Shown here piece by piece: positions 12,028 to 63,514 of a DNA stretch of 64,000 bases; the stretch's first letter is position 1; every line of letters begins with the position of its first letter. Origin of the DNA: Bacteroidota bacterium (GTDB lineage: Bacteria; Bacteroidota; Bacteroidia; Bacteroidales; UBA12077). The notes below the pieces were generated by a model. The model made no database searches and was not told the DNA's origin. It saw only the letters and a list, made by a program, of their open reading frames with translations. The stretch spans positions 404,266 to 468,265 of the forward strand of contig JAHLLG010000002.1 of assembly GCA_020444275.1 (NCBI GenBank), read 5' to 3'. Position numbers and translations under genes: made by a program.

Positions 12028-12036
12028 ATCGTATAC

Positions 12037-13773: not shown

Positions 13774-13783
13774 AACTATTCAT

Positions 13784-15648: not shown

Positions 15649-15676
15649 TATTATTAATTGTATAGATGCTAATGTT

Positions 15677-15720: not shown

Positions 15721-15767
15721 GAAATAGAACCCGTAAATTTATTACATGAATTGATGTATTGATTGAA

Positions 15768-16769: not shown

Positions 16770-16849
16770 TGAACATTACCTGTATTTAATTTGTCAATTA
16801 TTTTGTTATTTTTGAGCACTGAATCACCGAACCAATAATTGTTTAATAG

Positions 16850-22122: not shown

Positions 22123-22221
22123 TTATTTATATTTTAATTCTTTCTTTCTTTTTTTAATAAATACAATAGTTATAATTCTAAATACCTAGAAAATTTAGCT
22201 AAACAAACTTTTCTTATTTGT

Positions 22222-44831: not shown

Positions 44832-45278
44832 CTAATTTTCTTTTTCATCCAGAAAGATTTTCATCGTACAATCAGCAATTAATTCATTATCGCATGTAAT
44901 CTTTCCATTAATGAGTGTTGTGTTAAAAACTTTGTGTTCAACATTTATTTCTGTGATAATACTTTTACCAATTTCCGGTAGTTTATGAATCGTTAGTTTC
45001 TGAACTGCACCAATGTATCCTGTTGGCACTTCTTTGTCGGCATTTCTATATTCAAATCCAACACCTACAGCAGCTGTTTGAGCTATATTTTCAATTAATC
45101 CGGGTTCTTGTAAAACTCCGTCGCTGCAAAAAATATTTTCTTTTTTTATCTCAAAACTGCCAATGGTCTGACCACCTTCTGCTTTATGCAATTTCTCTAC
45201 CATAACCATTGGTGCTCTTTGAGGGATAAATTTTAAAATATCTTCTCCCGTAGCAATTACATTGTCATATATTCCCAT
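44832..45278 (-). CDS. Hotdog-fold dehydratase (FabZ-like, APE type)
   Basis: 'ILKFIPQRAPMVMVEKL' corresponds to the FabZ 'LPHRYPFLLVD' N-terminal motif with His replaced by Gln. 148 aa. Confidence 0.6.
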   Translation of the reverse strand: MGIYDNVIATGEDILKFIPQRAPMVMVEKLHKAEGGQTIGSFEIKKENIFCSDGVLQEPGLIENIAQTAAVGVGFEYRNADKEVPTGYIGAVQKLTIHKLPEIGKSIITEINVEHKVFNTTLINGKITCDNELIADCTMKIFLDEKEN

Positions 45279-46615
45279 AATGGTCCTTTTTTTCCTCGCT
45301 GTCTAAGCTTGTTGGTAATTATTGTGGTATCTTCATCAGGAAATACCCAACGTTTTCTTGTTTTATATGCCCTTTCTTTTAGTGTGTCGTAATTTACATC
45401 TTTGGAAAGGTAATATTTTGGTTCTAATAAGTTATCATTTGCATCTATAAAACCTTCCTGTATAGCATATTCCTGAAGTTTAGTTCCGGGATATATTCGC
45501 ATTCCCACAAAGGTAAAGAATACCGAATTATCAATATGTTTCGAATTTTCAAAGGTTTCATCTACAGTTTCATCAGTTTCTCCGTAACCTCCTGTAATTA
45601 AAAAGTGAGCAAAATCGATATCCAATTTATTACACAATGCAGATTTTTCAATAACATCCTGAACTGTAAAATTCTTTCCGTAGGTTTTAAGGCACTTCTC
45701 AGAAATTGCCTCTGTTCCAAATTCGACATGCTGTAAACCCGATTTCTTTAATATCTTAAGTAAGTTTTCATCCAGATTTTTAAAGGTGAAATAGCCTCCC
45801 CAATGAATTTTAATTCCACTGGCAATTATTTTTTCTGCAAGCTCGTAGTTGTAGTCATTCTTAATATTAAAAACCGAATCGGTAAAGAAAACATAATCGA
45901 TACCCTTTTGGTAGTACAGTTTTTTTAATGTTTCAACAATTTTATCCGTATTTAAGGTACGCACCTTTTTACCTTCAATTAAAGGGTAGGTGCAATAAAT
46001 GCAGCTATATGGACAACCACGCTTTGTTTGAACATTTAGCATCCCGCTTTTCTGCCAGTAAAAATCAATCAAATCTTTATCAAAATCTAAATCCAGATCA
46101 CTGAAATAACTTTCGTTTTTATTGAAAACACATTGACCGTTTTTTTTGTAAACTAGTCTGCTTATTCCTGTAAAATCCTCGTTGTTATCCAGTGTATTAA
46201 TTAAGTTCAGGATAGTTTGTTCTCCTTCTCCGTATACCCCGAAATCAGGATTTAATCTGTCAAACATCAGTTCCGGAAAAATTGAAAAACCTGAACCACC
46301 AACAATAATTTTAGCATCTGATACTATACGCAGATGATCAATTACATTTTTGTAATGCGTAACAAATTCTTCGCGGTTATATGAGTTAACATCATCAATG
46401 TTTCTGAACGAAACACCAATATATTTAGGGCTATACTCTTTAGTAAGTGATTGCAATTCTTCAACGTTGGTAAAGTTGAGATCAACAACCTTTATTTCGT
46501 AGTTGGGTAATCGGTCTTGTAAATATGTTGTAATATAAGATAATCCAATAGGATAAACCGGATAAGGATTTACATGTTGATTTGCCGAAATAAATAGTAT
46601 CTTGTTTTCTTTCAT
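45257..46615 (-). CDS. B12-binding-domain radical SAM protein
   Basis: N-terminal flavodoxin-like B12-binding region. The CX3CX2C motif is 'GCPYSCIYCTYP'. 452 aa. Confidence 0.85.
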   Translation of the reverse strand: MKENKILFISANQHVNPYPVYPIGLSYITTYLQDRLPNYEIKVVDLNFTNVEELQSLTKEYSPKYIGVSFRNIDDVNSYNREEFVTHYKNVIDHLRIVSDAKIIVGGSGFSIFPELMFDRLNPDFGVYGEGEQTILNLINTLDNNEDFTGISRLVYKKNGQCVFNKNESYFSDLDLDFDKDLIDFYWQKSGMLNVQTKRGCPYSCIYCTYPLIEGKKVRTLNTDKIVETLKKLYYQKGIDYVFFTDSVFNIKNDYNYELAEKIIASGIKIHWGGYFTFKNLDENLLKILKKSGLQHVEFGTEAISEKCLKTYGKNFTVQDVIEKSALCNKLDIDFAHFLITGGYGETDETVDETFENSKHIDNSVFFTFVGMRIYPGTKLQEYAIQEGFIDANDNLLEPKYYLSKDVNYDTLKERAYKTRKRWVFPDEDTTIITNKLRQRGKKGPLWEYMTM

Positions 46616-49810: not shown

Positions 49811-51352
49811 TTATTTTAAAATATTTGGCTTATTTTCAACTAAATAGTTGTTAATATTTTCGATATGCTTATATAATGGTTCGTCTTTTGTGATTGTTGG
49901 CACTAATTTTCTTAACTCATGATATACTTCTTTTCCTGTTGCAGATAATCTATCTTTAAATTTCATGTAATCTACTATCTGTAACAGACTTAAAAACTTA
50001 ATGGCTAAAACCTGAAATGAATTCTCGATTACTTTTTTTGTAATTAATGCTGCGTTTGTTCCCATACTTACAATATCCTGGTTATCACCATTATTAGGTA
50101 TACTGTGAACGTACATAGGGTTTGACAACATTTGACTCTCTGCTGTTGTGCTGGTAGCAGTAAATTGAGCAGCTTGTAATCCAAGGTCAAGACCAACAAC
50201 TCCTAAATTTGCAAATGGAGGGAATTTTTCATTAATCTTGTTATTATACAGGTAATTAATTTGTCGTTCAACCAACATGGTAAGCTTAGTAATAACAATT
50301 TTTAACTTATCCATCTCAAGCGAAACATAATCACCATGGAAATTTCCACCATGAAGTACGTCGATGTTTTCATTTTCGATGATCGGATTATCGTTCACTG
50401 AGTTGATTTCATTAATCAAAACTTCTTCCACATGATTAAGTGTTTCGTAAACCGGCCCTAAAACTTGTGGAACACATCGCAGTGAATAATACTCCTGAAC
50501 TTTAACCTTTATAACACCTACACCAATATTATTATCGTAGAATAGATCTGCTCTTTTTTGAATCAAATCACTTGATTCAACAATTTTACGCATTTGCTCT
50601 GCAATAACATTTTGTCCCTTATGAAGTTTTACCTGGTTAAGTTCTTTTGAAAAATGATCATCTACAGACTCAACAACTTCATTGATCATGGTTGATGAAA
50701 TTAATGCCCAGTTTAAAAGATTTTTGGCATGAAGTAGATTAATTAATCCTATACCTGTCATACATGATGTTCCATTGATTAAAGCCAACCCTTCTCTCAA
50801 GTGGATTTGTAATGGTTCAAGGTTATTTGCCTTAAATACTTCTTTTGCAGGACGATACTTTCCATCGTAAAAGATTTCACCTTCTCCAATCAAATTTAGC
50901 GCCAGATGCGCTAATTGCACTAGGTCGCCACTGGCTCCAACTCCACCATGTTCAAAAATCTTTGGATAAATATCTCTGTTAATGAACTCTTTTAGCAAGT
51001 AGATAGCATCAGTATGAACACCGGAATATCCACGCATAAAAGTATTCAACCGTCCAATCATTAATGCTTTTACATAGATGTTTGGCAGAGGATTTCCTGT
51101 ACCCGCAGCATGACTGCGAATAAGGTTGTACTGAAGTAGTTTTTGGTCCTCGTCGCTAATCTTGTATTGAGCCATTGGACCAAAGCATGTATTAATGCCG
51201 TATATTACTTTATCCTTGGAAAAATCTTCTAGAAAATTATAATTCTTTTCAACTTTATGTAATGATTCAGAATCTAAGTCTATTTTTTCTCCTTCATAAA
51301 GTGCTTTGTAAAAATCATTTAGATTGAGATTCTTACCCCCTAATATTATCAT
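49811..51352 (-). CDS. MIO-dependent aromatic amino acid ammonia-lyase (tyrosine ammonia-lyase of the flexirubin type)
   Basis: 'GGVGASGDLVQLAH' (Ala-Ser-Gly MIO triad). Long stretches resemble my recollection of the Flavobacterium johnsoniae TAL ('QYNLIRSH..GTG', 'NGTS.MTGIG', 'QEYYSLRCVPQ.LGP', 'TATSTTAESQMLSNPMYVHSIPNN'). Confidence 0.9.
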   Translation of the reverse strand: MIILGGKNLNLNDFYKALYEGEKIDLDSESLHKVEKNYNFLEDFSKDKVIYGINTCFGPMAQYKISDEDQKLLQYNLIRSHAAGTGNPLPNIYVKALMIGRLNTFMRGYSGVHTDAIYLLKEFINRDIYPKIFEHGGVGASGDLVQLAHLALNLIGEGEIFYDGKYRPAKEVFKANNLEPLQIHLREGLALINGTSCMTGIGLINLLHAKNLLNWALISSTMINEVVESVDDHFSKELNQVKLHKGQNVIAEQMRKIVESSDLIQKRADLFYDNNIGVGVIKVKVQEYYSLRCVPQVLGPVYETLNHVEEVLINEINSVNDNPIIENENIDVLHGGNFHGDYVSLEMDKLKIVITKLTMLVERQINYLYNNKINEKFPPFANLGVVGLDLGLQAAQFTATSTTAESQMLSNPMYVHSIPNNGDNQDIVSMGTNAALITKKVIENSFQVLAIKFLSLLQIVDYMKFKDRLSATGKEVYHELRKLVPTITKDEPLYKHIENINNYLVENKPNILK

Positions 51353-51707: not shown

Positions 51708-52205
51708 ATGAAAGAAAAAGACGCTTATGTCGATTTTGAACCACAGCAACTTATAATGTATGTTGAAAAGGAAGATGGAACCTATGGTCCAATTCAAACT
51801 GGTTCATATATATCAAAAAATTATTTGGATGATTTTTGGGAAAAGACTGTAAGACTTAGAAGCATGTTGCTCGATAAACTTAAAAAGAATGAAATTACAT
51901 CGATATATTTTTATAAATTAATTCACGATTTTAATGATGTTGAACTATCGCGCAGAACAGGAATATCCGTGCGGAGAGTAAAAAAGCATCAGAAAGTGGA
52001 TTGTTTTAAAAGGGCTCGCTTGTCAGATCTCCGGAAATATGCTTATGCGTTTGATATTCCTGTATCTAATTTACTTCAAACGATTGTTGTGGGAGAAGAA
52101 GAGCAAAATCCAGATATAGAAAGTGAAAAGCGTCAAGTAAAAGTAAAGCAATCGAGAACGGAAAATCCATTTTTAGTTATTACCAAAATAGATCTTAATA
52201 CATAA
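51708..52205 (+). CDS. Small HTH-containing protein (XRE-like), paralog of 44404..44805
   Basis: 'DVELSRRTGISVRRVKKHQK...LSDLRKYAYAFDIPVSNLLQ'. I prefer the ATG at 51708 ('MKEKDAYV') by comparison with the paralog; the ORF track starts at 51645. The stop overlaps the next start (TAATG). Confidence 0.55.
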   Translation: MKEKDAYVDFEPQQLIMYVEKEDGTYGPIQTGSYISKNYLDDFWEKTVRLRSMLLDKLKKNEITSIYFYKLIHDFNDVELSRRTGISVRRVKKHQKVDCFKRARLSDLRKYAYAFDIPVSNLLQTIVVGEEEQNPDIESEKRQVKVKQSRTENPFLVITKIDLNT

Positions 52206-53218
52206 TGATAATAGATTCTTTTAAACACAATATGGCGGCTCACTGTGAGTCGGGTACATTAACCGCTTTATTAAAACATAAAGGTTTAGAGATAACCGAA
52301 CCTATGATATTTGGTTTAGGAAGCGGTTTATACTTCGGGTATCTTAGTCATACGCCAAATTTAAGTTTTCCGATGTTTATTTTAAGAACGAAGCCTGGAA
52401 AACTTCGCAAGAAGATTGCAAAAAGAACTGATATAAAATTTAATACTCAGAGGTTTAAAAGCGAAGATAAAGCAGAACAGGAATTAGATGAACTAATAAG
52501 TAAGGGTATTCCTGTAGCTTGTCAGGTGGATTTTTACTACATGGATTATATTCCACAGTGGGAGAGAGTTCATGCTAACATTCACTTTATTACGGTTGTT
52601 GGAAAAGAGGGCGATGAATATCTTGTTAGTGATAGTTATTTTCCAAAATTAGCGCGTATTCACAAAGATAAATTAAGAAAAGCTCGATTTGCAGGAGGCT
52701 ATTTAGCACCAAAAGGTTTTCGATATTTTATTGAATCTGTTCCGGAAACTATTAATTATGAAAAATTAATACCAGTTTCAATAAAAAACACCATTAATAA
52801 TATGATCGGAGTGCAACCTCCTTTTATTGGGGTGCGTGGTATTAGAACTTTTGCAAAAAAATTGCAGGGTTGGCCTAAAATTACACGAGATATTGATCAC
52901 CTTTCACACGAAGTGATGAAAATTAATGTATTTTTGGAAGACCAGGGAACCGGTGGTGGAGGATTTCGATATTTATATGCAACATTCCTTAGACAATGTG
53001 CTGATAAAATATCAAATAAGGAGTTAGAAGAGATGTCGAAAAAGATGATGGAAATCGGCGATGGTTGGCGAAATATTTCTTACTTTGCAGCCAAAATAGG
53101 AAAGAACAGAGATTTAGGAGCTGATAAACTTAAGGAGCTTGGAGATATGATTAACGAAAGAGCTGATGCCGAAGAAGCATTTTATAAGGAGTTGAAAGTA
53201 GTTATAAATAATATTTAA
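52205..53218 (+). CDS. BtrH N-terminal-domain (papain-like fold) protein, DUF4872-type C-terminus
   Basis: 337 aa, with 'AAHCESGTLTALL' and 'HANIHFITVVG'. It is colinear with 43383..44399 along its whole length, including 'GTGG.GFR..YA.FL'. Confidence 0.65.
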   Translation: MIIDSFKHNMAAHCESGTLTALLKHKGLEITEPMIFGLGSGLYFGYLSHTPNLSFPMFILRTKPGKLRKKIAKRTDIKFNTQRFKSEDKAEQELDELISKGIPVACQVDFYYMDYIPQWERVHANIHFITVVGKEGDEYLVSDSYFPKLARIHKDKLRKARFAGGYLAPKGFRYFIESVPETINYEKLIPVSIKNTINNMIGVQPPFIGVRGIRTFAKKLQGWPKITRDIDHLSHEVMKINVFLEDQGTGGGGFRYLYATFLRQCADKISNKELEEMSKKMMEIGDGWRNISYFAAKIGKNRDLGADKLKELGDMINERADAEEAFYKELKVVINNI

Positions 53219-53231
53219 TTTTTCAGATATA

Positions 53232-53507
53232 ATGGGAGAACATAATGGTACAGAGTTGAAGGCGGATATTAAAAAGATGATTATTGAAACATTGAATATG
53301 CAAGATATTACGCCCGAAGATATAGATGATGATTTACCGCTTTTTGGTGGTGATAATACTTTAGGTCTTGATTCTATTGATGCAATTGAGTTGGTAATGT
53401 CTGTTCAGCGCCAGTTCAAAGTACGTATTGATGATCAGAATTTAGCCCGTGAGGTGTTAAAAGATGTAAATTCTATTGCAGAATTTATTCAAAGTAAGGC
53501 TGAGTAA
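53232..53507 (+). CDS. Acyl carrier protein
   Basis: 91 aa, with 'LGLDSIDAIELVMSVQ'. Confidence 0.85.
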   Translation: MGEHNGTELKADIKKMIIETLNMQDITPEDIDDDLPLFGGDNTLGLDSIDAIELVMSVQRQFKVRIDDQNLAREVLKDVNSIAEFIQSKAE

Positions 53508-53545
53508 GTCTTTTTCTTTTATTTAAAATCCGAACCAAACTAATT

Positions 53546-54634
53546 ATGAAAAGTGCTTACCTGATAGCAGGTATGAGACTATCCAGATTCATAAAACTTA
53601 TGATGAAAAATGGAATGTCTGTTCGTCCAAAATTCTTGGTTCGCTTTTTATTTCTTTTCCAGAATGGTATCTGGGCTTCAATTTTTTATCGCAAGGAGAA
53701 ATCAATCTATAAAGATCTTATTAAAAAACACAGATTACCCGATGATCCAATTATTATTGTAGGACATTGGAGAACTGGTAGTACTTTTTTGCACCAACTG
53801 TTAGCTCTTGATCCAAATATTGTAACTTCTAATGTTTTTCAGGGGTCAATACCTGATAGTTTCCTGACTTCCAGAAAGTCGTATGAGCCAATAATGGGCA
53901 GAGCGCTTAAAGGTACTCGCCCAATGGATCAGGTTAAGTTGAGTATGGACGAACCATTGGAAGATGAATATGCCTTATTTCGTTTATGCAGCTATTCACC
54001 ACTCGAAGGAGTTATTTTTCCTAAACAGGACGGATATTTTTTAAATCACTTTCCGGGATTTTTACCTGAAGATGAAAAATTAGAACAATGGAAAAGTGCA
54101 CTTAAATATTTTTATAAAAAATTAACTATAAACAACAACTCAAGAATATTAATTAAAAATCCTTTTCATTCTTTTCGAATTAAAGTTTTAAACGAAATAT
54201 TCCCCAATGCAAAGTATATTCATATCATCAGGCACCCACATAAAGTGGTGCCATCTACTATTCGCATGTGGGATATAGTAGGATCCCAAAATGCAATGAA
54301 TACCAAATGGAGAAAGCCTACAGCTGGCGAGGTAAGTGATGTTTTTAATAAAATGATTCTGCAAATAGAAAAAGATTTTAAAGGTCTTTCTGCAGAAAGG
54401 TATTATGAGTTGAAGTTTGAAGATTTGGAGAAAAATCCAATAAACGAGATAAAGGCAATCTATAAGCATTTAAATGTTCAATTTTCTGATGAATTTGAGC
54501 AACAAATATTACAATTTTTAAATTCGGTAAAAGGGTACAAAAAAAATAAATATACAATTCCGGAATCGGATAAACTGGAAATCAATAACATCCTGAAATC
54601 ATGGATGCAAGCGAAAGATTATAGTTTGGATTAG
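53546..54634 (+). CDS. PAPS-dependent sulfotransferase family protein
   Basis: 5'-PSB loop 'VGHWRTGSTFLHQLL' and a 3'-PB-like 'IIRHPHKVVPST'. 362 aa. Confidence 0.8.
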   Translation: MKSAYLIAGMRLSRFIKLMMKNGMSVRPKFLVRFLFLFQNGIWASIFYRKEKSIYKDLIKKHRLPDDPIIIVGHWRTGSTFLHQLLALDPNIVTSNVFQGSIPDSFLTSRKSYEPIMGRALKGTRPMDQVKLSMDEPLEDEYALFRLCSYSPLEGVIFPKQDGYFLNHFPGFLPEDEKLEQWKSALKYFYKKLTINNNSRILIKNPFHSFRIKVLNEIFPNAKYIHIIRHPHKVVPSTIRMWDIVGSQNAMNTKWRKPTAGEVSDVFNKMILQIEKDFKGLSAERYYELKFEDLEKNPINEIKAIYKHLNVQFSDEFEQQILQFLNSVKGYKKNKYTIPESDKLEINNILKSWMQAKDYSLD

Positions 54635-54686
54635 TTTATTTTTTTGATACTTTTAACCATTAAATTAAGAAGAAAACAAAGAACGT

Positions 54687-55961
54687 ATGAAATTTCAATT
54701 AATATTTCCCAAGTGGAGAAAGCTGGAAGGACAAACAACATTTAATTTACCACCACATGGTGCGATTGTATTTGCATCAACCATTCCTGAAGAGTTTGAA
54801 GTTGAATTTATAGATGAAAATCTTGAGGAAATGAGATTCGATGATGATGTTGATTTTGTGGGAATATCCATGTTGTTAACAACACAAATAAAACGAGGTT
54901 GGGCAATAGCCGACGAGTATAGAAAAAGAGGCAAGAAAGTTATATTTGGTGGTATTGCAACCATGCTGCATGCCGAAGAAACGATGGAACATGCCGATAG
55001 TGTTTTCCTTGGAGAAGCTGAAGGACACATGGATCAGGTTTTCAAAGATTTCAAGAATGGAGAATTGAAGAAATTTTATAATTTCATGAATGATCTTCCG
55101 CCGATTGAAATTGTTGGTCCTGCACGAAGAGAGCTTTACAACAGAGATTTGTATTATCATAAAGGAGTTCAAATGGTTGACTTATTCCATGCTTCGCGTG
55201 GTTGTCGCTATAGTTGTTATCCTTGTGCAGTTTCTTATTTAGGTGGTCGTCAGTTTCGACCAAGACCCATTGATAAATCCATTGAAGAGCTGGAGACAAT
55301 AGATAATAACAGACTATTTATTGTAGATAATTCGCTGGCACAAGATACTCAATGGGAAAAGGATCTGTTTAAGGCAATGATTCCACTTAAGAAAAAATGG
55401 TGTAGTCATACAATTGAAGATAAGCCAGAGGTTCTTGATTTGGCAGCGCAAGCTGGTGCATGGTATGTTTACCAGGCTGTTTTTGATACTTCGGACTATA
55501 TTAAAAATCGTGTAAAACGATATCATGATTACGGAATTGGAGTAGAAGGTACTATTTTATTAGGTCTAGATAACCAAACAGAGGATGATATTAAGCGATT
55601 AATTGATTTCTTACTGGAGATTGATCTTGACCTGGCCGAATTTACAGTATTGGCACCATTCCCACATACTAAAGCCTGGACCGATTTAAGAAAACAAAAC
55701 AGAATTTTCGATTACAACTGGGATAACTACAATGCTGGTCAGGTGGTTTATCACCCAAAACACATGAGTGCTGAGCGTTTACAAGAGTTGTATCAGTATG
55801 CATGGGATACATTCTATAAAGATGAAACGCAGGAAGAAAAGATGTTTAAACTCTTGAAAAAGGTTGTTTCAAGAGAAATGGAAGATGGAACTTTCAGAAA
55901 GCGCCGACAGGATCTTTCAAAATCCAGCTTTGGAAAAAATGTTAAACATAAAATTGCATAA
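54687..55961 (+). CDS. B12-binding-domain radical SAM protein
   Basis: N-terminal B12-binding-like region. CX3CX2C motif 'GCRYSCYPCAV'. 424 aa. Confidence 0.85.
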   Translation: MKFQLIFPKWRKLEGQTTFNLPPHGAIVFASTIPEEFEVEFIDENLEEMRFDDDVDFVGISMLLTTQIKRGWAIADEYRKRGKKVIFGGIATMLHAEETMEHADSVFLGEAEGHMDQVFKDFKNGELKKFYNFMNDLPPIEIVGPARRELYNRDLYYHKGVQMVDLFHASRGCRYSCYPCAVSYLGGRQFRPRPIDKSIEELETIDNNRLFIVDNSLAQDTQWEKDLFKAMIPLKKKWCSHTIEDKPEVLDLAAQAGAWYVYQAVFDTSDYIKNRVKRYHDYGIGVEGTILLGLDNQTEDDIKRLIDFLLEIDLDLAEFTVLAPFPHTKAWTDLRKQNRIFDYNWDNYNAGQVVYHPKHMSAERLQELYQYAWDTFYKDETQEEKMFKLLKKVVSREMEDGTFRKRRQDLSKSSFGKNVKHKIA

Positions 55962-55975
55962 TTGTTGATTGTACG

Positions 55976-56353
55976 ATGGAAACAAAAACAAGTAAATATC
56001 AGGATCAATTGTATCATTTTAAGGGATTATGGGATCTTCCATCAGTTTGTGGGTTGAAAATTGTAAAAAAAGCTGATCAAGCAATTATCATTGCTACTGA
56101 TTTGTTTGATGAAAACCCCGGAACTTCTATTACGGAATGGAATACAAAGTTAGCGAAAGAGCTGTGCGATAATCATGATATAAATTACCAGGATTTAATT
56201 TATATTGAGCATACCCCAAATAAGGATACCAAGTTATCGTTTAACAGAGAAACATTTTATAAAGTTAATTTTGATATTAGCGACAATGGATTTGATAATC
56301 CACAGTGGGAGGAGTTAACAAAAAGTGAAGTAGATAAATTATTAACAGAATAA
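55976..56353 (+). CDS. Hypothetical protein
   Basis: 125-aa ORF, tightly packed in the operon. No motif recognised. Confidence 0.5.
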   Translation: METKTSKYQDQLYHFKGLWDLPSVCGLKIVKKADQAIIIATDLFDENPGTSITEWNTKLAKELCDNHDINYQDLIYIEHTPNKDTKLSFNRETFYKVNFDISDNGFDNPQWEELTKSEVDKLLTE

Positions 56354-56363
56354 ACAAAATATA

Positions 56364-56666
56364 ATGGCTAAAATTACTGATAACACAAGAAATGAGGTTA
56401 AAGAAATCGTTCTGGATTTTTTTGCAGAGGAGTGTGAGGTTGATGCAGAAGAGATATCAGAAGATGCAAATATTATTAGTGATCTGGATGGTGATTCTTT
56501 AATGTTTCTTGAGCTTATTGAAATATTTAAAAAGAAATATAATTTAAATATAGAATTAAAAACAATTGGTAAATATGCGGTTAAGCATCCGGTAAAAACT
56601 ATTGGAGAGCTTATCGATATGCAAATGCTTATCATTGAGCACGAAAATAATATTTTGGATTTGTAA
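56364..56666 (+). CDS. Acyl carrier protein (divergent)
   Basis: 100 aa, with 'SDLDGDSLMFLELIEIF' as an ACP-like DSL motif. Confidence 0.75.
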   Translation: MAKITDNTRNEVKEIVLDFFAEECEVDAEEISEDANIISDLDGDSLMFLELIEIFKKKYNLNIELKTIGKYAVKHPVKTIGELIDMQMLIIEHENNILDL

Positions 56667-56681
56667 GATACTATTCAGTGG

Positions 56682-57050
56682 ATGATATTAAGTTGTGGTA
56701 TTGATATTGAAGAGATAGAACGATTTAATAAGCACTACTTTCACAAAGGAAAGTTGTCTGATTTAATGTACGATATTTTTACTACTAAGGAGATAGATAA
56801 TTTGTCTGTTTTCGGTAAAGAAGCCTTTTTAAAAGGCTTTTGTTTTAAGGAGGCATTCTATAAGGCCATAAATAATACAAATGTAGGTTTCTTGGATATT
56901 CAGATTATTTTTAGCAGTGAAAAAAGTTTTGAAATTTTAAAGTCGAAAGAACTTGATAATATCTTAAATAGTTTGGCCATAAAAGAGATTCAGGTAGAAT
57001 TTCAAACAGAGAAACAATACATCATTTCAAAGGTTTTATTAGTACACTAA
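56682..57050 (+). CDS. AcpS-type 4'-phosphopantetheinyl transferase
   Basis: 'CGIDIEEIERF', 'FTTKE' and 'CFKEAFYKAI'. Both AcpS Mg-ligand positions (Asp, Glu) are conserved. Confidence 0.75.
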   Translation: MILSCGIDIEEIERFNKHYFHKGKLSDLMYDIFTTKEIDNLSVFGKEAFLKGFCFKEAFYKAINNTNVGFLDIQIIFSSEKSFEILKSKELDNILNSLAIKEIQVEFQTEKQYIISKVLLVH

Positions 57051-57940
57051 TGAAAAAGAAAGCATATATTTTCCCTGCATTTATTACTGAATTTACAGGT
57101 AAAGAAATATCTTTTCTTGAAGATCATAACATTGATATCAATACGTATCTGTCCAATATTTCCGAATCTTTAGCTATTGAATTACCAACTTTTTCTTATG
57201 AGCACGAATTTTATAAAGAAGAGCTAAATTCTCAATTAATTGCTTACTCGTTTAGCTGTGCTTTTTCCGATATTTTAAAATCTAAACAGATTATTCCTGA
57301 TTATATCGCCGGATACAGTATGGGAATTTATGCTTCACTTTATGCTTCTGGCAGCATCGATTTTATTCAGGGAGCTCAAATAATATTTAAAGCATATAAT
57401 CTGGTTAAAGCTCTTTCTGACGAAGGATTACACGGTATGGGAGCAGTTGTTGGGTTAACGTATTCAGAATTAAATGAGTTAATCTTAAAACATAATTATG
57501 CTCTGGAGATAATAAACACCAACAACGAGCACTCGTTAGTTCTAGCCGGAAAGAAGAACGATCTTAAAGAACTTTTAACCATAGCTAAAGATTTAGGTGC
57601 ATTATCTGCAGGAGATTTAACCGTAAATACACCATATCATTCCAGATTTTTAAAGCAGTTTGCTGCTCCATTCAGGTGCTTTTTAGATCAGTTGAATATT
57701 TCTGATAGTAAACTGCCTCTAATATCCACGTATGATCAAAAGCTTGTGTTCAAAGTTTCGGATGTAAAGTTGGAGTTAGTAATTAACTTAACGGAATCTA
57801 TTAACTGGGGAAGAACCATGCTTAAATTAATTGATCTTGGAGTGGAAGAGATGTACGAATGTGGAGCAGGTAAGGATTTAAAAAAGATATCGCGTTTTAT
57901 TCATGGTAATTACAAAATCAAATCGGTATATAATATATAA
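57050..57940 (+). CDS. FabD-like acyl-CoA:ACP transacylase, non-canonical specificity residues
   Basis: It aligns to E. coli FabD: 'AGYSMGIYASL' (Ser nucleophile kept, GHSLG becomes GYSMG), 'TPYHSRFL' (His kept) and 'YECGAGK'. 'GQGSQ' is replaced by 'AFITEF', and the Arg of 'EMRGKFM' is replaced in 'IFKAYNLV'. Confidence 0.75.
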   Translation: MKKKAYIFPAFITEFTGKEISFLEDHNIDINTYLSNISESLAIELPTFSYEHEFYKEELNSQLIAYSFSCAFSDILKSKQIIPDYIAGYSMGIYASLYASGSIDFIQGAQIIFKAYNLVKALSDEGLHGMGAVVGLTYSELNELILKHNYALEIINTNNEHSLVLAGKKNDLKELLTIAKDLGALSAGDLTVNTPYHSRFLKQFAAPFRCFLDQLNISDSKLPLISTYDQKLVFKVSDVKLELVINLTESINWGRTMLKLIDLGVEEMYECGAGKDLKKISRFIHGNYKIKSVYNI

Positions 57941-57944
57941 AAAA

Positions 57945-57965
57945 GGAACCTAATTTTGAGGTTCC
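57945..57965. terminator. Bidirectional rho-independent terminator
   Basis: GGAACC-(9 nt)-GGTTCC hairpin, flanked by AAAA upstream and TTTTTTGTTT downstream, between convergent genes. Confidence 0.7.
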
Positions 57966-57989
57966 TTTTTTGTTTAAAATAGTTAATTC

Positions 57990-58604
57990 CTATTTAAAAG
58001 CTTTTTTTACTAAATAAGCACCGAATTCTTTTCCACCTTTTGCATAGGCTTCTGAAATTCTGTAACCAGTATCATAATCATTACCCATAGCGTCGCGTCC
58101 GGGAACTTTTTCCATGGTCATTACGGCTAAAACATTATCACGGTTTTCTGTTTCAGCAAATACAATTTCAAGGTCAATCATTGCATCTTTTCTCATAACG
58201 CCAACATTAAATCCTGGTTCTGTAAACGTAACTTTTACAACCGCAACATATTTTGCATTAATATTGGTTTGATCAATATTGCAATTGGCTTTTGCTAAGT
58301 ATTTATTAGCAAGTTCTTCGAATTTAGGATGGAAACGTCCTTCTCTGTCTGCAACCCAGCTTTCTGCCCATTCATCACCTTTGCCAGGCTCTTTTTCGTT
58401 GTACTCAGCTACTTTTTTGGCTACATAGTCTTCTTCTCTCTCAAATTTGCCAACAGCCATATTACTGTAATCATATTCCACCAATAATTCCGTTTGGCCT
58501 TTCAGGAAATCTAAGTCGCCACGTACAACTTTGATTTTTTGTGCTTGAACATTTGTTGCAACAACTACAATTAGTGCAACTAAAACAGTTTTTAAAATTT
58601 TCAT
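57990..58604 (-). CDS. Hypothetical secreted protein
   Basis: 204 aa with signal peptide 'MKILKTVLVALIVVVATNVQAQ'. No recognisable motif. Confidence 0.55.
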   Translation of the reverse strand: MKILKTVLVALIVVVATNVQAQKIKVVRGDLDFLKGQTELLVEYDYSNMAVGKFEREEDYVAKKVAEYNEKEPGKGDEWAESWVADREGRFHPKFEELANKYLAKANCNIDQTNINAKYVAVVKVTFTEPGFNVGVMRKDAMIDLEIVFAETENRDNVLAVMTMEKVPGRDAMGNDYDTGYRISEAYAKGGKEFGAYLVKKAFK

Positions 58605-58641
58605 ACGAAGTAATTTTTTGTTTGTAATTAAATATTTAAAA

Positions 58642-58818
58642 TTATATAAAAATTGCTAGGGTGCCATGAACCATCGCTGTTATGAATAAAGTAATGCCCA
58701 AACGTCGGTGTAAAGTAAATTTTACTTTAATGATGCGTAGTCCACTTAAAAGTTGAAATAATGCCAGAATAAAATTGATTATTCCTAACCATAAGATGAT
58801 ATTAATTCCAAAAATCAT
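58642..58818 (-). CDS. Small (58-aa) two-TM membrane protein, not in the supplied ORF track
   Basis: My manual translation is MIFGINIILWLGIINFILALFQLLSGLRIIKVKFTLHRRLGITLFITAMVHGTLAIFI*. It has two hydrophobic helices, each followed by or containing a His. It starts 11 nt after the stop of the upstream SOR-like gene. Confidence 0.45.
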   Translation of the reverse strand: MIFGINIILWLGIINFILALFQLLSGLRIIKVKFTLHRRLGITLFITAMVHGTLAIFI

Positions 58819-58829
58819 ATGTTTATGTT

Positions 58830-59207
58830 TTATTTTATTTCAATTTTGACCGAATCAAGGCCTTTAGAACCATGCAGGTTACAATTCCCTTTTGCTTCTA
58901 TGGTTGTTGGGGCGTCAATTTTTAAGGTAAACTCAAGTGTGAAGTTTTCTTCCTCAGGTTTGCTAAAACCACCATATTCCCACTTTTTATATTCTTTGTC
59001 ATTTACTTTTACCCAAACCCAGTTGGTATGATGCAAAAAGTTATTACCACTATGAGTTACTTCAATTTTAATAGTTACTTCAGATCCTTTTTCAACTTTT
59101 TCTGGGGCATCTATTTTTACTGAAGTTTCATTTGCTAGCGAATGAAGAGAGAAAATTAGAATCAATAATAATGAGATTGTACTTGCTTGTAATAATTTCT
59201 TTTTCAT
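58830..59207 (-). CDS. Exported desulfoferrodoxin/neelaredoxin (superoxide reductase)-like domain protein
   Basis: 125 aa with a signal peptide. 'EVTHSGNNFLHHTNWVWVKV' and 'GNCNLHGSKG' parallel the SOR 'H-x6-HH(I/Y)..I' and 'CN.HG' Fe-ligand motifs. 'PEKVEKG' sits where SOR has 'EKHVP'. Confidence 0.6.
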   Translation of the reverse strand: MKKKLLQASTISLLLILIFSLHSLANETSVKIDAPEKVEKGSEVTIKIEVTHSGNNFLHHTNWVWVKVNDKEYKKWEYGGFSKPEEENFTLEFTLKIDAPTTIEAKGNCNLHGSKGLDSVKIEIK

Positions 59208-59243
59208 AATATTTTAGTTTGAATTTGAATTATTGGTCAAGTA

Positions 59244-59621
59244 TTATTCTACACTAACAGTAAATTTATCTTCTCCTTTAGATCCATGTTTGTTGCAATT
59301 ACCTTCTGCAACTATTTCGAGGTTAGCATTGGCAATTATTTTATATTCTAAAGTGAAGTTTTGGTCGTCAGGCAGGTTGTCTTTTGAATATTCCCATCGC
59401 TTAACTTCTTCGCCGTTAACTTTCAACGAAACCCAGTCGGTGTAGTGTCCTTTTGTATTTCCAATATGTTTAACTTCAATTTTAACAGTTACTTCTGTCC
59501 CTTTTTTTACTTTTTCCGGAGCAACAATTGTTACAGATGTTTTATTGGCAAAAACTCCTGAAGAGATTAGCAGAAGAGCCATTAATGCAAAAATACCTAA
59601 TAAAGTGTTTTTTCTTTTCAT
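59244..59621 (-). CDS. Exported desulfoferrodoxin/neelaredoxin-like domain protein (tandem paralog)
   Basis: 125 aa with a signal peptide. Motifs 'EVKHIGNTKGHYTDWVSLKV', 'GNCNKHGSKG' and 'PEKVKKG'. Confidence 0.6.
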   Translation of the reverse strand: MKRKNTLLGIFALMALLLISSGVFANKTSVTIVAPEKVKKGTEVTVKIEVKHIGNTKGHYTDWVSLKVNGEEVKRWEYSKDNLPDDQNFTLEYKIIANANLEIVAEGNCNKHGSKGEDKFTVSVE

Positions 59622-59652
59622 AGTATGATTCCCCTTTTTAGTGATAAGCTAA

Positions 59653-59721
59653 TTTACTAAAAAAAGAATATAAATGGTTATTTTTTATGAAATTGGGATT
59701 AATTTTTACTAAAAAAAGAAT
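59653..59721. repeat. 17-nt exact direct repeat pair in an intergenic region
   Basis: TTTACTAAAAAAAGAAT occurs at 59653-59669 and again at 59705-59721, between the rSAM gene and the first SOR-like gene. Confidence 0.7.
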
Positions 59722-59740
59722 CATACAAATACTTTAAGTA

Positions 59741-61081
59741 TTAAATTACATCTGTACCTTTCTTTATTAACCATAGCTTACCAACATTTTCATAAAATTT
59801 TTCCAGAGGTAACTTGGTTTTAAGAACACTATTGAAAAAGTTATATTTTGTGAGATCAAAATCAATAATTTGCTCTTTTACTTCATCATAGAAAGGTGTA
59901 CCAGGCATTGGTGTTAAAATGGTATATCCGGCATACGTTACTTTGTGAGAGCTGGTATATTCAGATAAGGCTTTAAAGTCAGATTCATCGTAATCATTAG
60001 GTATTACATAATTACCTCTTAGCATGATGTCATTTTTATGAAAAATATCAATAGCTTCATGTATTAACCTAGCTTCGGCACTTTTGTTATATCTTTTCAA
60101 CTCTTCTTCTCTAAACGATTCAAAACCACAGATCACTACTTTTAAACCATTCCTTGCTAGTTTTTCAATTAATTTTGGATGTTTAACAGCCGTATCTGTT
60201 CTAATGTCCATGATATAGGTTTTCTTAATACCTTCCTGTTCTATTCTATCAAACAGATAATCAATAACCTTTTCGTTAACAATGGTATTGGCATCGGCAA
60301 AACGAACAATGTTATAGTCAATCTGCTTTAACTCGGTGATTATACTTTCCACATCACGCTGCAAATATTTTCCATGATACTGGCACCAAATAGAGCAAAA
60401 AGTACATTTGTATGGACAACCCAATGAAGTAAACAAATAAGTTGATGGTTCATTTGCATTTCCTACAATATAGCTGTCCCGCCAGGGCTCAACTAATTTT
60501 CGGTTCGGCATCAAAAAATCTTCTTTGGCCGAGTTAAAATCATATCTCCTTAGTTTCGTTTTTTTTAGCTCACCATTATGATTGATGATGATTCCCGGAA
60601 TATGATCAAATGTCTTATTTTTTTCTTTAGCTTGTATAACTTCTCTGAAAATGTGCGCTGATTGTCCTGGAAGAACAAGGTCTACCGATGGATCTGAAAA
60701 ATCGGTGGGAGATGAGGTAGCATGTAGTCCGCCGGCTACAGTTAAAATTTGAGGATTGAACGATTTTACAGTTTTAAAAATTTCTATGGCGTAATCAAAT
60801 TCTGAAGCAATGGTAGTTGTTCCAACAACATCGGGTTGATGTTCATTTAATAATTTAAGTACTAACTCTTGTAATGGTGGAGTAGTTTCCGGGTACAAAT
60901 CATACTGACCTTTAGTTTCAAAAAAAACTACATCATAATCTTTAACTGCTTCGGCAACGGTTAATAGTCCTAATGGCGGACCAATTAATTTTTTATGAAT
61001 ATATTTTTTGGCTTCTGCAGGTGCAGATTCAAGAATCATATTATGAGGTGAACGCGGTGTATTAATTAATAGAATTTTCAT
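59741..61081 (-). CDS. B12-binding-domain radical SAM protein
   Basis: N-terminal B12-binding-like region ('MKILLINTP...'). CX3CX2C motif 'GCPYKCTFCSIW'. 446 aa. Confidence 0.85.
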   Translation of the reverse strand: MKILLINTPRSPHNMILESAPAEAKKYIHKKLIGPPLGLLTVAEAVKDYDVVFFETKGQYDLYPETTPPLQELVLKLLNEHQPDVVGTTTIASEFDYAIEIFKTVKSFNPQILTVAGGLHATSSPTDFSDPSVDLVLPGQSAHIFREVIQAKEKNKTFDHIPGIIINHNGELKKTKLRRYDFNSAKEDFLMPNRKLVEPWRDSYIVGNANEPSTYLFTSLGCPYKCTFCSIWCQYHGKYLQRDVESIITELKQIDYNIVRFADANTIVNEKVIDYLFDRIEQEGIKKTYIMDIRTDTAVKHPKLIEKLARNGLKVVICGFESFREEELKRYNKSAEARLIHEAIDIFHKNDIMLRGNYVIPNDYDESDFKALSEYTSSHKVTYAGYTILTPMPGTPFYDEVKEQIIDFDLTKYNFFNSVLKTKLPLEKFYENVGKLWLIKKGTDVI

Positions 61082-61159
61082 GCTAACCGAAGTAAAACGT
61101 AAGCTGCGAATATACTAAAAAGATTATTAAAGATTAGAATTACGACTTTTCAGTTGTCT

Positions 61160-63514
61160 TTAAAATTGTATTCTGTAGCTTGCCATAGGATACAATGCCA
61201 TTTCGTAATTATGATAAATTTTACCTGTTAATGGATCAATTCTTTGTTCGTAAACACTGGTATAGTTTGTTCGATACTGGAGATCCATAGCAATTTCAAC
61301 GTTGAATTTTGGCTTATTTCTACGTATCCCCAATCGTAAGTTAACTCTAAAATAATCTTCTTGTCTGTGTTCATACGCATGGTCCCAATCTAAAACTTCT
61401 TCGCGTTGAGCAATAGTTGCTTCCACATCGTATGGTACATAAGGGCGCCCACCTGCATATGTGGTCTTCAGACCTATAATAAAAGCGTTGGTTTTGCGCA
61501 GTGGTATTTCATAACCACCAAGCACATTAATAGCAAAATTACCATTAAATGCTGTATTCCTTTCCTTACCATCATATCCTCTATAAGTTGATTCGTAGAG
61601 TGATGTTGTAAGTAAGAAGTAGAAATTATCTTCAAAAAATCGCTCTAATGTGAGCTCGATACCATAGTTTTCACCAGTTCCATCATTGGTTAAGCTATCC
61701 ACTCGTTCGATAAAATATTCTGCGCCAAAATTAAGTACCGAATATTCCGGTTGACTGGGTTTTACAGGAATATCGTAAAGGTACTGATAGTACGTTTCGA
61801 ACTTTAATCTGAGATTATCGCTAAACAGATGATCATATCCAATAACAAACTGGTGACTCTTTGTTAAATCAAGATTTTTATTGGTATATACATAAGATCC
61901 ATCGTCCAATTTTGTTTGTGTAAAATAGATTACGCGCAGTTGCGCCTGACTGTGCAATCCATAACCCATTTTAAATGAGTTTCTGGAATTTATAGTCCAG
62001 TTAAAACCTAAGCGTGGTTCGATGGAATAAGTGTCGTTTAAATCTAAATACTGAAAGTTAATTCCGGAATAGAGATCAATGTAATTTGTAAATTTGTGTT
62101 TAAACTGCGCATATGCCTGAAACATATCAAACTGTTCATTTCTTACGTCAGTATCAACTTGAAAAACGCCATTGTTAATGGTGCTATCTTCAAAACTTAC
62201 AAAATAACGATCTACCTTTATACCGTAATTCAGAATGTTTTTATTATTAAGCTTGGTATTTATATGTGATGTCAGACTAGCTTTTACTTCAGATGATTTT
62301 TCACCTGCCCAGTTACCAATTAGCTCAGGATCGAGATAGAATGTGTCAATTTGTGTTGTAACAGCTGATCCATAAAGTGATACTGCGGTTTGCATACGTG
62401 TTTTTGTTCCAAAGAAATGAACATATGACAGAGCCAATGAACCTATGTCAGAACCATTACTGAGATCTTCTCCCCAGTCATCAAATGACCATTCACTTTG
62501 ATCATCATTAGAATCAAACATTTCAATATAGCTTTTCCCGCCCAAACCAACCAGGCTTAATCTTCCTTTTTTCATTGGAAAATTAAGTTTAACGGTTAAG
62601 TCCTGGTATTTTGTAGTTTCCACTTCGGCACCCAAAAGATCAATAATGTCAACCATCGAATATCGATAGGAAATTAAATATGATGCATTGGAATTTTTAG
62701 AGAAAGGTCCTTCGGTTCCAAATTCTAAACCATTATAACCAAATTCCAACCAGTGTTCTCTTTTTTCGTTATTTCCGGTGCGCATTTTCATATCAAAAAC
62801 ACCTGCTAAAGCATTACCATATTCAGCAGGAAATGCTCCGGTAAAGAAATCTGAATTGCTTAACAAATTATTATTCAAAATAGTTATTGGTCCTCCTGTG
62901 GTCCCCGATGCAGCAAAATGATTCGGATTCGGAATTTCAATACCATCTAATCGCCATAGTAATCCTGTGGATGAATTACCACGAATAATAATATCATTTC
63001 TGTTATCGCGTACCGACATAACTCCTGCATAGTTTGCAGCCATGCGTGCCGGATCATCATAACTTCCGGGGTATCTGCTCGTTTCTTCAACGGTAAATGA
63101 CCGGGCACTTACAGTTGCCATTTTATTGATAGGTTTGTCTTTTTGAACGGTAGCTTTTATAACAACTTCATCGAGCTCGGTAACTGATTCTTCTAATTCT
63201 ATTTTAAGGATTTTTTCTTTAGCTGAGCTAATGGTAATATTGTCAAGAGCTTGTGTTTTGTAACCTACGTAGCTGGCTTGAATAGTTTGCCTGCCCACAG
63301 GAACATTATCAAAACGAAAGGTTCCATTCTCATCACTTATGGTACCTTGTTGCGGACTTGTATTTGGCAAAATGATATTCACCCCGGAAAGTGGTATCTG
63401 AGTTTCTCTGTCTACTACAACACCTCGTAATGTTTGTGTAAGTATTTTTTGTGCAAAACCAGATAAAACAGGTATGCTAACTAAACAGATAAGCAACAAA
63501 AGTTTTTGCTTCAT
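61160..63514 (-). CDS. TonB-dependent receptor with N-terminal carboxypeptidase-regulatory-like domain
   Basis: 784 aa. Signal peptide, then 'LRGVVVDRETQIPLSGVNIILPN...GTFRFDNVPVG' (CarboxypepD_reg). The plug region has 'IIIRGNSSTGLLWRLDGIEI'. The beta-barrel ends in 'SYRIQF'. Confidence 0.9.
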   Translation of the reverse strand: MKQKLLLLICLVSIPVLSGFAQKILTQTLRGVVVDRETQIPLSGVNIILPNTSPQQGTISDENGTFRFDNVPVGRQTIQASYVGYKTQALDNITISSAKEKILKIELEESVTELDEVVIKATVQKDKPINKMATVSARSFTVEETSRYPGSYDDPARMAANYAGVMSVRDNRNDIIIRGNSSTGLLWRLDGIEIPNPNHFAASGTTGGPITILNNNLLSNSDFFTGAFPAEYGNALAGVFDMKMRTGNNEKREHWLEFGYNGLEFGTEGPFSKNSNASYLISYRYSMVDIIDLLGAEVETTKYQDLTVKLNFPMKKGRLSLVGLGGKSYIEMFDSNDDQSEWSFDDWGEDLSNGSDIGSLALSYVHFFGTKTRMQTAVSLYGSAVTTQIDTFYLDPELIGNWAGEKSSEVKASLTSHINTKLNNKNILNYGIKVDRYFVSFEDSTINNGVFQVDTDVRNEQFDMFQAYAQFKHKFTNYIDLYSGINFQYLDLNDTYSIEPRLGFNWTINSRNSFKMGYGLHSQAQLRVIYFTQTKLDDGSYVYTNKNLDLTKSHQFVIGYDHLFSDNLRLKFETYYQYLYDIPVKPSQPEYSVLNFGAEYFIERVDSLTNDGTGENYGIELTLERFFEDNFYFLLTTSLYESTYRGYDGKERNTAFNGNFAINVLGGYEIPLRKTNAFIIGLKTTYAGGRPYVPYDVEATIAQREEVLDWDHAYEHRQEDYFRVNLRLGIRRNKPKFNVEIAMDLQYRTNYTSVYEQRIDPLTGKIYHNYEMALYPMASYRIQF

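Follow-up and report, generated by a model that had tools for sequence, protein, structure and literature searches.

A conserved DarG/DarH, carrier protein and sulfotransferase cassette in flexirubin-like gene clusters of uncultured Bacteroidales

Introduction

Flexirubin-type pigments are a chemotaxonomic hallmark of the Bacteroidota, and the steps that join and decorate the two halves of these molecules lack assigned enzymes. In the naming used for Chitinophaga pinensis, DarG is a hypothetical protein, DarH a protein with a BtrH N-terminal domain and DarI/J an ABC transporter (PMC12968099); the dar gene naming can be compared with that of the dialkylresorcinol (DAR) cluster of Azoarcus (PMC3949708), and FlxY is a characterised 4-coumarate-CoA ligase (PMC3992019). 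Here we describe a nine-gene operon (g1 to g9) in a 64,000-nucleotide stretch of a Bacteroidota bacterium of the Bacteroidales lineage UBA12077 (GenBank assembly GCA_020444275.1, contig JAHLLG010000002.1, positions 404,266 to 468,265 of the forward strand), which will be referred to as the window. Its first four genes, referred to as the cassette, encode a DarG-like protein (DarG'), a DarH-type acyltransferase (DarH'), an acyl carrier protein (ACP1) and a sulfotransferase (ST) of the type that depends on 3'-phosphoadenosine-5'-phosphosulfate (PAPS).

BtrH moves an ACP-bound acyl group onto an amine. Sulfation on a carrier protein has precedents in CurM and the olefin synthase (OLS) (PMC3903477) and in SulN of sulfazecin biosynthesis (PMC11298585), and the combination of a carrier protein with a sulfotransferase alone is therefore not new. 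Free hydroxy fatty acids are sulfated by ErSULT, which carries the automatic Enzyme Commission label EC 2.8.2.40 (PMC13449962). A preliminary description of the operon, made from the sequence alone, knew of no described pathway that joins ACP-tethered chemistry to a sulfotransferase and a cobalamin radical SAM enzyme beside a flexirubin-type locus. As regards carrier-protein chemistry with a sulfotransferase this was too strong, in view of CurM/OLS and SulN. Literature searches on DarH/flexirubin, BtrH/sulfotransferase and aryl polyene/sulfotransferase yielded no publication describing the cassette or a sulfated flexirubin-type lipid.

Results

When one genome was scanned for each GTDB species, 205 genomes proved to encode a relative of the sulfotransferase g4; from these, 80 loci were retrieved, originating from metagenome-assembled genomes (MAGs) of Bacteroidales, Marinilabiliales, Prolixibacteraceae, Lentimicrobiaceae and Rikenellaceae. 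Every locus, cited below by its L number where needed, was searched with the window proteins; 72 loci offered enough sequence, and the full loci were split by g4 identity into 13 close (at least 60%) and 31 distant ones (below 60%). The genes g1-g2-g3 were located directly upstream of g4 in 71 of the 72 loci. The order DarG'-DarH'-ACP-ST, with short gaps or overlaps, is near-invariant across g4 identities of 42-85% and thus argues for a functional unit. All nine genes together with the FlxA/ketosynthase (KS) core were present in every close locus (13/13), a strict co-conservation that agrees with the preliminary description, whereas in the distant loci only g1-g4 stayed together throughout (31/31). 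There, g5 was detected in 21/31, g6 in 20/31, the second carrier protein (ACP2) with the FabD-like gene in 4/31 and the AcpS gene in 0/31, so that g8 is confined to the close clade (13/13 versus 0/31). Directly behind g4, g5 was found in 42 of 71 loci.

Around the distant cassettes, a DarJ-like ABC permease of a DarI/J-like transporter was adjacent in 19/31, a FlxY-like ligase was present in 18/31 and an adjacent FlxA core in 1/31. The ligase of L007 is a FlxY equivalog (718 bits, cutoff 520) and 62% identical to FlxY of the window. In L088 the cassette lies co-directionally within genes for a KS, an ACP, an LPLAT protein, an O-methyltransferase, ApeP-like and ApeI-like dehydratases and LolA; it directly follows FlxA-FlxB-KS-LPLAT in L077 and is accompanied by LPLAT, a Methyltransf_2 O-methyltransferase and an ABC permease in L089 and L090. 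The cassette is consequently tied to aryl-polyene machinery even in distant genomes. Loading of ACP1 by the FlxY ligase was considered, because a FlxY equivalog comes after g4 in these 18/31 loci, but this is not separable from mere cluster membership; L091 contains g5-g6-ligase without the cassette.

Two peculiarities of single loci were observed. In L088 (7923-9932) the DarH' gene was called as fragments, and a nucleotidyltransferase/HepT-like toxin-antitoxin pair occupies the usual ACP slot just upstream of the sulfotransferase gene, which could be an insertion or an assembly problem. MAGs labelled as Thiohalospira sp., Chlorobiota and Fibrobacterota (L004/L026, L036, L063) carry Bacteroidales-like versions of the cluster, L026 even the full nine-gene operon with the FlxA core; the foreign taxon labels are likely due to binning contamination.

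Within the window, the nine plus-strand open reading frames (ORFs) at 51708-57940 were confirmed exactly as first reported, with a spacing between neighbours of -1 to 52 bp. The operon is indeed divergent from an aryl-polyene core, which proved to be of the flexirubin type: g1 is separated from the FlxA gene (49811-51352, minus strand) by a 355-bp divergent intergenic region. Also in agreement with the preliminary description, profile searches of the nine genes revealed no KS, ketoreductase (KR) or dehydratase, and a second polyketide or fatty acid synthase was rejected on this ground. The base composition of the operon is that of its flanks, and as its GC content is unremarkable, horizontal transfer inferred from composition bias was rejected as well. 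Scanning for sigma-70 promoters gave fewer sites than in shuffled sequences, and such a scan is uninformative for Bacteroidota.

Profile searches upheld the earlier family calls for g2, g3, g4, g7, g8 and g9, whereas the helix-turn-helix (HTH) call for g1 stayed below the cutoff and the two domains of g5 just under gathering. For g1, HTH_26 scored 17.7 bits (cutoff 22), and in place of an HTH protein the gene appears to encode a diverged DarG paralog: it obtained 41.1 and 43.5 bits with the NCBIfam DarG models (NF053536/NF053545), under the cutoffs of 70 (family) and 170 (equivalog), and is 26% identical to the core DarG (E = 2e-9). The g2 protein contains the Pfam domains BtrH_N (1.8e-41) and DUF4872 (9.4e-45) and matches the NCBIfam DarH family NF053550 over residues 6-331 of 337 with 324.7 bits, above the cutoff of 300. 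It is 37% identical to the core DarH, and the motif around Cys14, AHCEsG, is conserved in 75 orthologs. The label BtrH-like was accordingly right with respect to the BtrH_N profile and too generic otherwise, g2 being a second DarH copy. The genomic association of DarH with DarA/DarB was not found for g2 in this window, and a PDB sequence search with DarH' returned no meaningful match. Since g2 passes the DarH cutoff and g1 is homologous to the core DarG, we assign g1-g2 as a second, diverged DarG/DarH pair.

The carrier protein g3 scored 35.4 bits with PP-binding (cutoff 20.8), and its serine motif is conserved in 81 orthologs. In L068 a canonical-like DarG-DarH-ACP-KS array lies on one strand and adjoins DarI-DarJ-DarG'-DarH'-ACP-ST on the other. 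The ACP next to the canonical pair of L068 is 46% identical to g3, which suggests that the cassette originated from a DarG-DarH-ACP triad.

The sulfotransferase call for g4 passed the profile search clearly, with 110 bits for Sulfotransfer_3 (2.6e-31, cutoff 27). Across 16 diverse homologs of 46-85% identity, GHWRTGST (73-80) and R229...PS (236-237) do not vary, so that both the domain score and the 5'-phosphosulfate and 3'-phosphate binding loops identify g4 as a PAPS-dependent sulfotransferase. Its structural model is of high quality (predicted local distance difference test score, pLDDT, 90.3; predicted template modelling score, pTM, 0.90), and the sulfotransferase fold was matched with a probability of 1.0. 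In the fold search, the mycobacterial Stf9 (2z6v) and Stf1 (2zq5) ranked first with template modelling (TM) scores of 0.60-0.62 and E ~1e-12 over ~355 columns including the N-terminal helices, at a sequence identity of 16-17%. The ST domains of CurM and OLS followed at E ~1e-7, with TM scores of 0.40-0.42 when normalised to the query and 0.50-0.53 when normalised to these shorter targets. A PDB sequence search with g4 gave four matches, to the CurM ST, Stf1, the olefin-synthase ST and Stf9. The arrangement ACP-ST-thioesterase (TE) with upstream KS/KR, as in CurM/OLS, was not found; g4 is a discrete protein, only the adjacency to an ACP is common to both, and no thioesterase, KS or KR was present within the cassette in any of the 72 loci. 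At E <= 1e-10 there are 463 relatives of g4, nearly all from uncultured Bacteroidales, and members of the family bear an automatic label EC 2.8.2.40 (Stf3-type) at JGI. An exact-sequence look-up of g4 of the window gave no match, and the sulfotransferases labelled Draconibacterium were found in metagenome-derived records only, not in a cultured strain.

The putative B12-type radical S-adenosylmethionine (rSAM) enzyme g5 scored just under gathering in Pfam for both the B12-binding (31.8 versus 32.1 bits) and the Radical_SAM domain (26.8 versus 29.5). Both domains are present in the precomputed Pfam listing of most close homologs, and the CxxxCxxC motif (GCRYSCYPC) is conserved in 59 relatives. 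The best NCBIfam match reached 55.8 bits (cutoff 251), and the best PDB match was AprD4 (E = 0.0017). It is the most conserved gene of the operon, with 70-79% identity where g4 has only ~45%, and with more than 6,202 relatives at E <= 1e-20 its family is more than tenfold larger than that of g4. The following gene, g6, had no match in the Pfam or NCBIfam libraries. Its model is a small alpha/beta fold (pLDDT 79.7), for which a fold search against the PDB gave nothing significant (best E = 7.5e-3, TM 0.32).

The g6 gene follows g5 in loci both with and without the sulfotransferase. In L091, a 6.7-Mb genome, and L092, an Odoribacter sp., g5-g6 (at 76-77% and 45-47% identity) lie in flexirubin-like clusters, and tblastn confirmed that g1-g4 are not present within 10 kb. 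In Odoribacter, a desaturase gene, g5 and g6 occupy the slot divergent from FlxA, the same slot as that of the nine-gene operon here. We therefore read g5-g6 as a general accessory pair of Bacteroidales flexirubin-like clusters that is not specific for sulfation. The window contains three rSAM enzymes with B12-binding domains within 16 kb, namely g5, one of the TIGR04072 'lipid biosynthesis' type (45257-46615) and an HpnR-like one, the similarity among which is only marginal.

The second carrier protein, g7 (PP-binding 35.4 bits, cutoff 20.8), carries a highly conserved DGDSLMFLEL motif. The AcpS-type phosphopantetheinyl transferase (PPTase) g8 fits this class by its ACPS domain (PF01648, 42.4 bits, cutoff 25) and by the motifs CGIDIEE (D8) and FKEAFYKA (E57/K61), conserved in 25 orthologs. 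In keeping with the earlier call, its acidic residues and the lysine are conserved; D8, E57 and K61 we take, by analogy with AcpS, to be the Mg ligands and the lysine. With the holo-ACP synthase equivalog it scored 30.7 bits, under the cutoff of 59.8, and is therefore not the housekeeping AcpS. A second, short AcpS-like PPTase is encoded between two enoyl-CoA hydratase (ECH) genes at 12758-13123 (plus strand) of the operon at 11641-18067, so that the window encodes two dedicated PPTases.

The acyltransferase g9 was rightly called atypical. It passes the Acyl_transf_1 cutoff (35.6 versus 32.7 bits) and falls outside the FabD family TIGR00128 with 134.8 bits (cutoff 260.9). Aligned to 6mhp, GHSLG is changed to GYSMG and 'KRGE' to 'KAYN', which replaces the malonyl-binding Arg by Tyr, whereas Ser and the His of the HS motif are kept. 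The FPGQGSQ motif of FabD reads FPAFITEF in g9. Because the atypical residues are conserved in 30 orthologs, the substrate of g9 is probably not malonyl; a degenerating FabD-like gene was rejected for the same conservation. ACP2 accompanies the FabD-like gene in L006, L041, L044, L045, L048 and L080. In L006, L045 and L048 both adjoin an HpnR-like B12 rSAM gene and a TE/ECH/ECH/ketosynthase III (KSIII)/3-hydroxyacyl-CoA-dehydrogenase operon, and the other three loci show the same neighbourhood in part. The corresponding operon at 11641-18067 of the window is likely the working partner of g7-g9.

The core of the window is a flexirubin-type cluster, with the FlxA tyrosine ammonia-lyase, FlxB, the FlxY ligase, a type II KS set and LolA2/LolB2. 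The scores of the equivalogs lie above their cutoffs for FlxA (819.5 bits/cutoff 700), FlxB (403.5/340), FlxY (715.8/520), LolA2 (222.1/125) and LolB2 (143.6/60). Besides FlxY, the core encodes a C45 acyltransferase, a desaturase, an MMPL-acyltransferase-methyltransferase fusion, a family 2 glycosyltransferase (GT2), LolB2/LolA2, KS, chain length factor (CLF) and ACP proteins, a thioesterase, DarJ/I/H/G, one or more dehydratases, the TIGR04072 rSAM, LPLAT, a further ACP and KS, FlxB and FlxA. The canonical DarG and DarH, paralogs of g1/g2, are encoded ~7 kb away from the operon; the core DarG is just short of the flexirubin_DarG equivalog (163.3 bits, cutoff 170). A scan that covered almost every ORF of 90 aa or more within the 64 kb found no DarA or DarB equivalog, the only DarB-like protein being a KSIII (13784-14911) with 98.6 bits (cutoff 550).

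The right flank is kept beside the operon in 11-12 of the 13 close loci. Among the distant loci, the 204-aa protein accompanies the cassette in 17/31 and a CarboxypepD-type outer-membrane protein in 20/31. The two tandem 125-aa paralogs of the flank (58830-59207 and 59244-59621, minus strand) have signal-peptide-like N-termini and a weak match to a desulfoferrodoxin/neelaredoxin-type iron-binding domain, and a homolog is kept beside the operon in most related loci. Adjoining FlxY on the other side, two tandem 287-aa proteins with FISUMP domains (Fibrobacter succinogenes major paralogous domain) are encoded at 21259-23085 (minus strand). Further to the left lie a gene (7502-10600, minus strand) whose 1032-aa product contains acidic double-disulfide repeats and a segment related to Omp28, in the region where, within the window, the GC content peaks (0.387) and the GC skew is most strongly negative, and, at the left end (344-1303, plus strand), a pair encoding a SiaB-family protein kinase and a SiaC-like phosphoprotein, a biofilm-regulation module.

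Table 1: Position and assignment of the operon genes and of other features of the window.
Feature	Position	Strand	Description
g1	51708-52205	+	DarG-like small protein (DarG'), 165 aa; stop overlaps g2 start
g2	52205-53218	+	DarH-type BtrH-family acyltransferase (DarH'), 337 aa; putative catalytic Cys14 in HCESG
g3	53232-53507	+	Acyl carrier protein ACP1, 91 aa; LDSxD serine
g4	53546-54634	+	PAPS-type sulfotransferase, Stf1/Stf9-like, 362 aa
g5	54687-55961	+	Putative B12-binding-domain rSAM enzyme, 424 aa
g6	55976-56353	+	Orphan alpha/beta protein, 125 aa
g7	56364-56666	+	Second acyl carrier protein ACP2, 100 aa
g8	56682-57050	+	AcpS-type phosphopantetheinyl transferase, 122 aa
g9	57050-57940	+	Atypical FabD-like acyltransferase, 296 aa
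Bidirectional hairpin	57939-57971	.	13-bp stem, flanked by A-run and T-run; between g9 and the convergent 204-aa gene
Flexirubin-type aryl-polyene core	23109-51352	-	NCBIfam equivalogs above cutoffs
Canonical DarH	43383-44399	-	NCBIfam DarH, 461.6 bits (cutoff 300); Cys motif HCENG
Canonical DarG	44404-44805	-	DarG_fam, 164.6 bits (cutoff 70)
Right flank	57990-63514	-	204-aa secreted protein, two 125-aa paralogs, HpnR-like B12 rSAM, CarboxypepD_reg/Plug outer-membrane protein
HpnR-like B12 rSAM	59741-61081	-	Part of right flank
CarboxypepD_reg/Plug outer-membrane protein	61160-63514	-	Part of right flank
KSIII/ECH/thioesterase operon	11641-18067	+	Thioesterase, ECH, AcpS-like, ECH, KSIII (weakly StlD/DarB-like), outer-membrane protein, 3-hydroxyacyl-CoA dehydrogenase, FabF

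Discussion

Since g1-g4, g5-g6 and the ACP2/FabD-like genes show separate genomic associations, we distinguish three modules and read the layout as the g1-g4 cassette inserted ahead of the g5-g6 pair, with g7-g9 appended behind as a loading module. That the operon is a lineage-specific fusion of these modules serving a flexirubin-type lipid pathway, with the sulfate added by the cassette being kept in the product, has in our judgement about an even chance of being correct. By means of the cassette, a pigment lipid of the outer membrane probably receives a sulfate-bearing part. In such a pathway, ACP1 would carry a hydroxylated acyl or hydroxyaryl-acyl thioester, and DarH' would take the acyl group onto Cys14 before passing it to the pigment or its lipid anchor, at a hydroxyl or amine. 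The sulfotransferase g4 would sulfate a hydroxyl of this unit, be it still carrier-bound or already transferred, giving an ester that stays in the product. The resulting anionic pigment lipid might then be exported by the DarI/J-type ABC transporter, LolA2/LolB2 and the CarboxypepD-type outer-membrane protein. In the third module, AcpS would prime ACP2, onto which the Arg-less FabD-like enzyme would load a non-malonyl acyl group; this module probably feeds the KSIII/ECH/thioesterase operon at 11.6-18 kb and may build an alkyl stand-in for dialkylresorcinol. The earlier idea that part of the nine-gene operon may build a lipid in place of dialkylresorcinol suits g7-g9 with the 11.6-18 kb operon better than it suits the sulfotransferase.

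Retention of the sulfate is preferred because the fold of g4 is Stf-like, no TE, KS or KR accompanies it, and BtrH-family enzymes are transferases, not decarboxylating hydrolases. The same observations bear on a CurM/OLS-like activation, in which g4 would sulfonate a beta-hydroxyacyl-ACP1 to create a leaving group and DarH' would act as thioesterase, so that offloading, with or without decarboxylation, would lose the sulfate and leave an alkene as sulfate-free product. CurM/OLS are known to work in this way (PMC3903477), g4 has an ACP gene directly before it in 71/72 loci, and the CurM ST (4gbm, 3.2e-9) and OLS ST (4gox, 1.6e-7) are two of the four PDB sequence matches, that to CurM being the best of all. 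However, the CurM match spans only residues 179-319, the folds of Stf9 and Stf1 are closer by the query-normalised TM scores, and the cassette contains neither an alpha/beta-hydrolase thioesterase nor KS/KR, all of which, together with the transferase nature of the BtrH family, makes an activation of this kind unlikely. A stand-alone role of g4 must also be weighed: it might sulfate a free lipid from outside the cluster, such as a hydroxy fatty acid or a hydroxylated quinone, as do ErSULT and Stf3, its linkage to DarG'/DarH'/ACP then reflecting common regulation or export and not common chemistry. The closest folds are in fact stand-alone mycobacterial Stf enzymes, and the EC 2.8.2.40-type label at JGI is the same as that of ErSULT. 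An automatic EC label is, however, no test of function, and the near-invariant order of the cassette argues for a functional unit, so that we consider sulfation of a free lipid quite improbable.

The preliminary description had viewed the nine genes as one dedicated carrier-protein line for a single rSAM-modified (e.g., methylated), sulfated acyl unit. The operon is tight and co-conserved in all close relatives, and g5 directly follows g4 in more than half of the loci, as such a line would predict. Nevertheless, g5-g6 occur without the sulfotransferase in L091 and L092 and g5 belongs to a far larger family than g4, and among the distant loci AcpS is lacking throughout, with the few ACP2/FabD-like pairs located beside a different operon. 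We therefore give this view little probability. Altogether, the observation reported earlier is confirmed, and its interpretation is partly supported.

Several points weigh against the three-module reading with retained sulfate. To our knowledge, Stf1 and Stf9 have no assigned substrates themselves. No biochemical characterisation of any DarG or DarH was found in the searchable literature. The best PDB sequence match being the CurM ST, a leaving-group role of the sulfate is possible. Genes for PAPS synthesis were not seen in the window. The adjacency to FlxY may only mean that the cassette was inserted into an array of g5-g6-FlxY, considering the g5-g6-ligase genes without cassette in L091. 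Furthermore, the link of the distant cassettes to a polyene core was judged at the fetched loci, and since most source genomes are MAGs, some gene orders may reflect assembly.

Going beyond the three-module reading, anaerobic uncultured Bacteroidales might use the cassette to make outer-membrane lipids of a class not seen before, namely sulfated aryl polyenes (flexirubin-like) in which a sulfated acyl or alkyl unit replaces dialkylresorcinol; we regard this as possible, albeit doubtful. If true, DarH-type enzymes would account for the step that forms the ester or amide in flexirubin assembly and that has long been sought. Should the product be a sulfated pigment lipid, abundant anaerobes of sediments and the sea would bear a novel type of bacterial sulfolipid on their surface. 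The cassette, present in more than 200 species, offers a defined four-protein system for reconstituting the DarH reaction, and the split into three modules shows which genes belong together for deletion. It also sets apart the question of the rSAM/g6 pair, which concerns many more genomes, that of Odoribacter among them.

Comparison with Known Systems

In comparison with the flexirubin/dialkylresorcinol gene set of C. pinensis and Flavobacterium johnsoniae (flxA-Y, darA-J), the window has equivalogs of FlxA, FlxB, FlxY, LolA2, LolB2 and DarH as well as a DarI/J-like ABC transporter, KS/CLF/ACP, dehydratases, LPLAT and the MMPL fusion. Unlike for that set, no DarA or DarB equivalog was found in it, and it contains a second DarG/DarH pair with its own ACP and sulfotransferase as well as extra rSAM enzymes. 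Moreover, the hosts of the cassette are uncultured, probably anaerobic Bacteroidales, in contrast to the aerobic Flavobacteriia and Chitinophagia. The gene of a BtrH_N-domain protein lies beside that of a small ACP as for BtrH/BtrI in butirosin biosynthesis, an arrangement implying that an acyl group is passed from the ACP to an acceptor. Only the family of the N-terminal domain is common to both, however, g2 having a DUF4872 C-terminal domain, belonging to the NCBIfam DarH family and lying outside any aminoglycoside context.

Among sulfotransferases, the best full-length structural matches of g4, with conserved PAPS loops, are the mycobacterial Stf1 (2zq5) and Stf9 (2z6v), but Stf1, Stf9 and Stf3 are stand-alone enzymes whose genes are not accompanied by those of an ACP or a BtrH-type transferase. 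PAPS-dependent sulfonation of a carrier-bound intermediate, as proposed for g4, is carried out by the ACP-ST-TE of CurM/olefin synthase and by SulN. In contrast to CurM/OLS, g4 is discrete, has no thioesterase domain and a fold nearer to Stf1/Stf9, and is accompanied by a cysteine-type BtrH-family transferase instead; CurM/OLS do not keep the sulfate, and the product of SulN is an N-sulfamate on a peptide. The acyltransferase g9 shares the fold family and the intact Ser-His pair of FabD and differs from it by GYSMG and the exchange of the malonyl Arg for Tyr. All enzyme families of the operon are thus known and the surrounding pathway is of a known kind. The new element is that a DarG/DarH-type pair is coupled, in a conserved manner, to its own ACP and an Stf-like sulfotransferase, and this in flexirubin-like clusters that have no dialkylresorcinol genes nearby.

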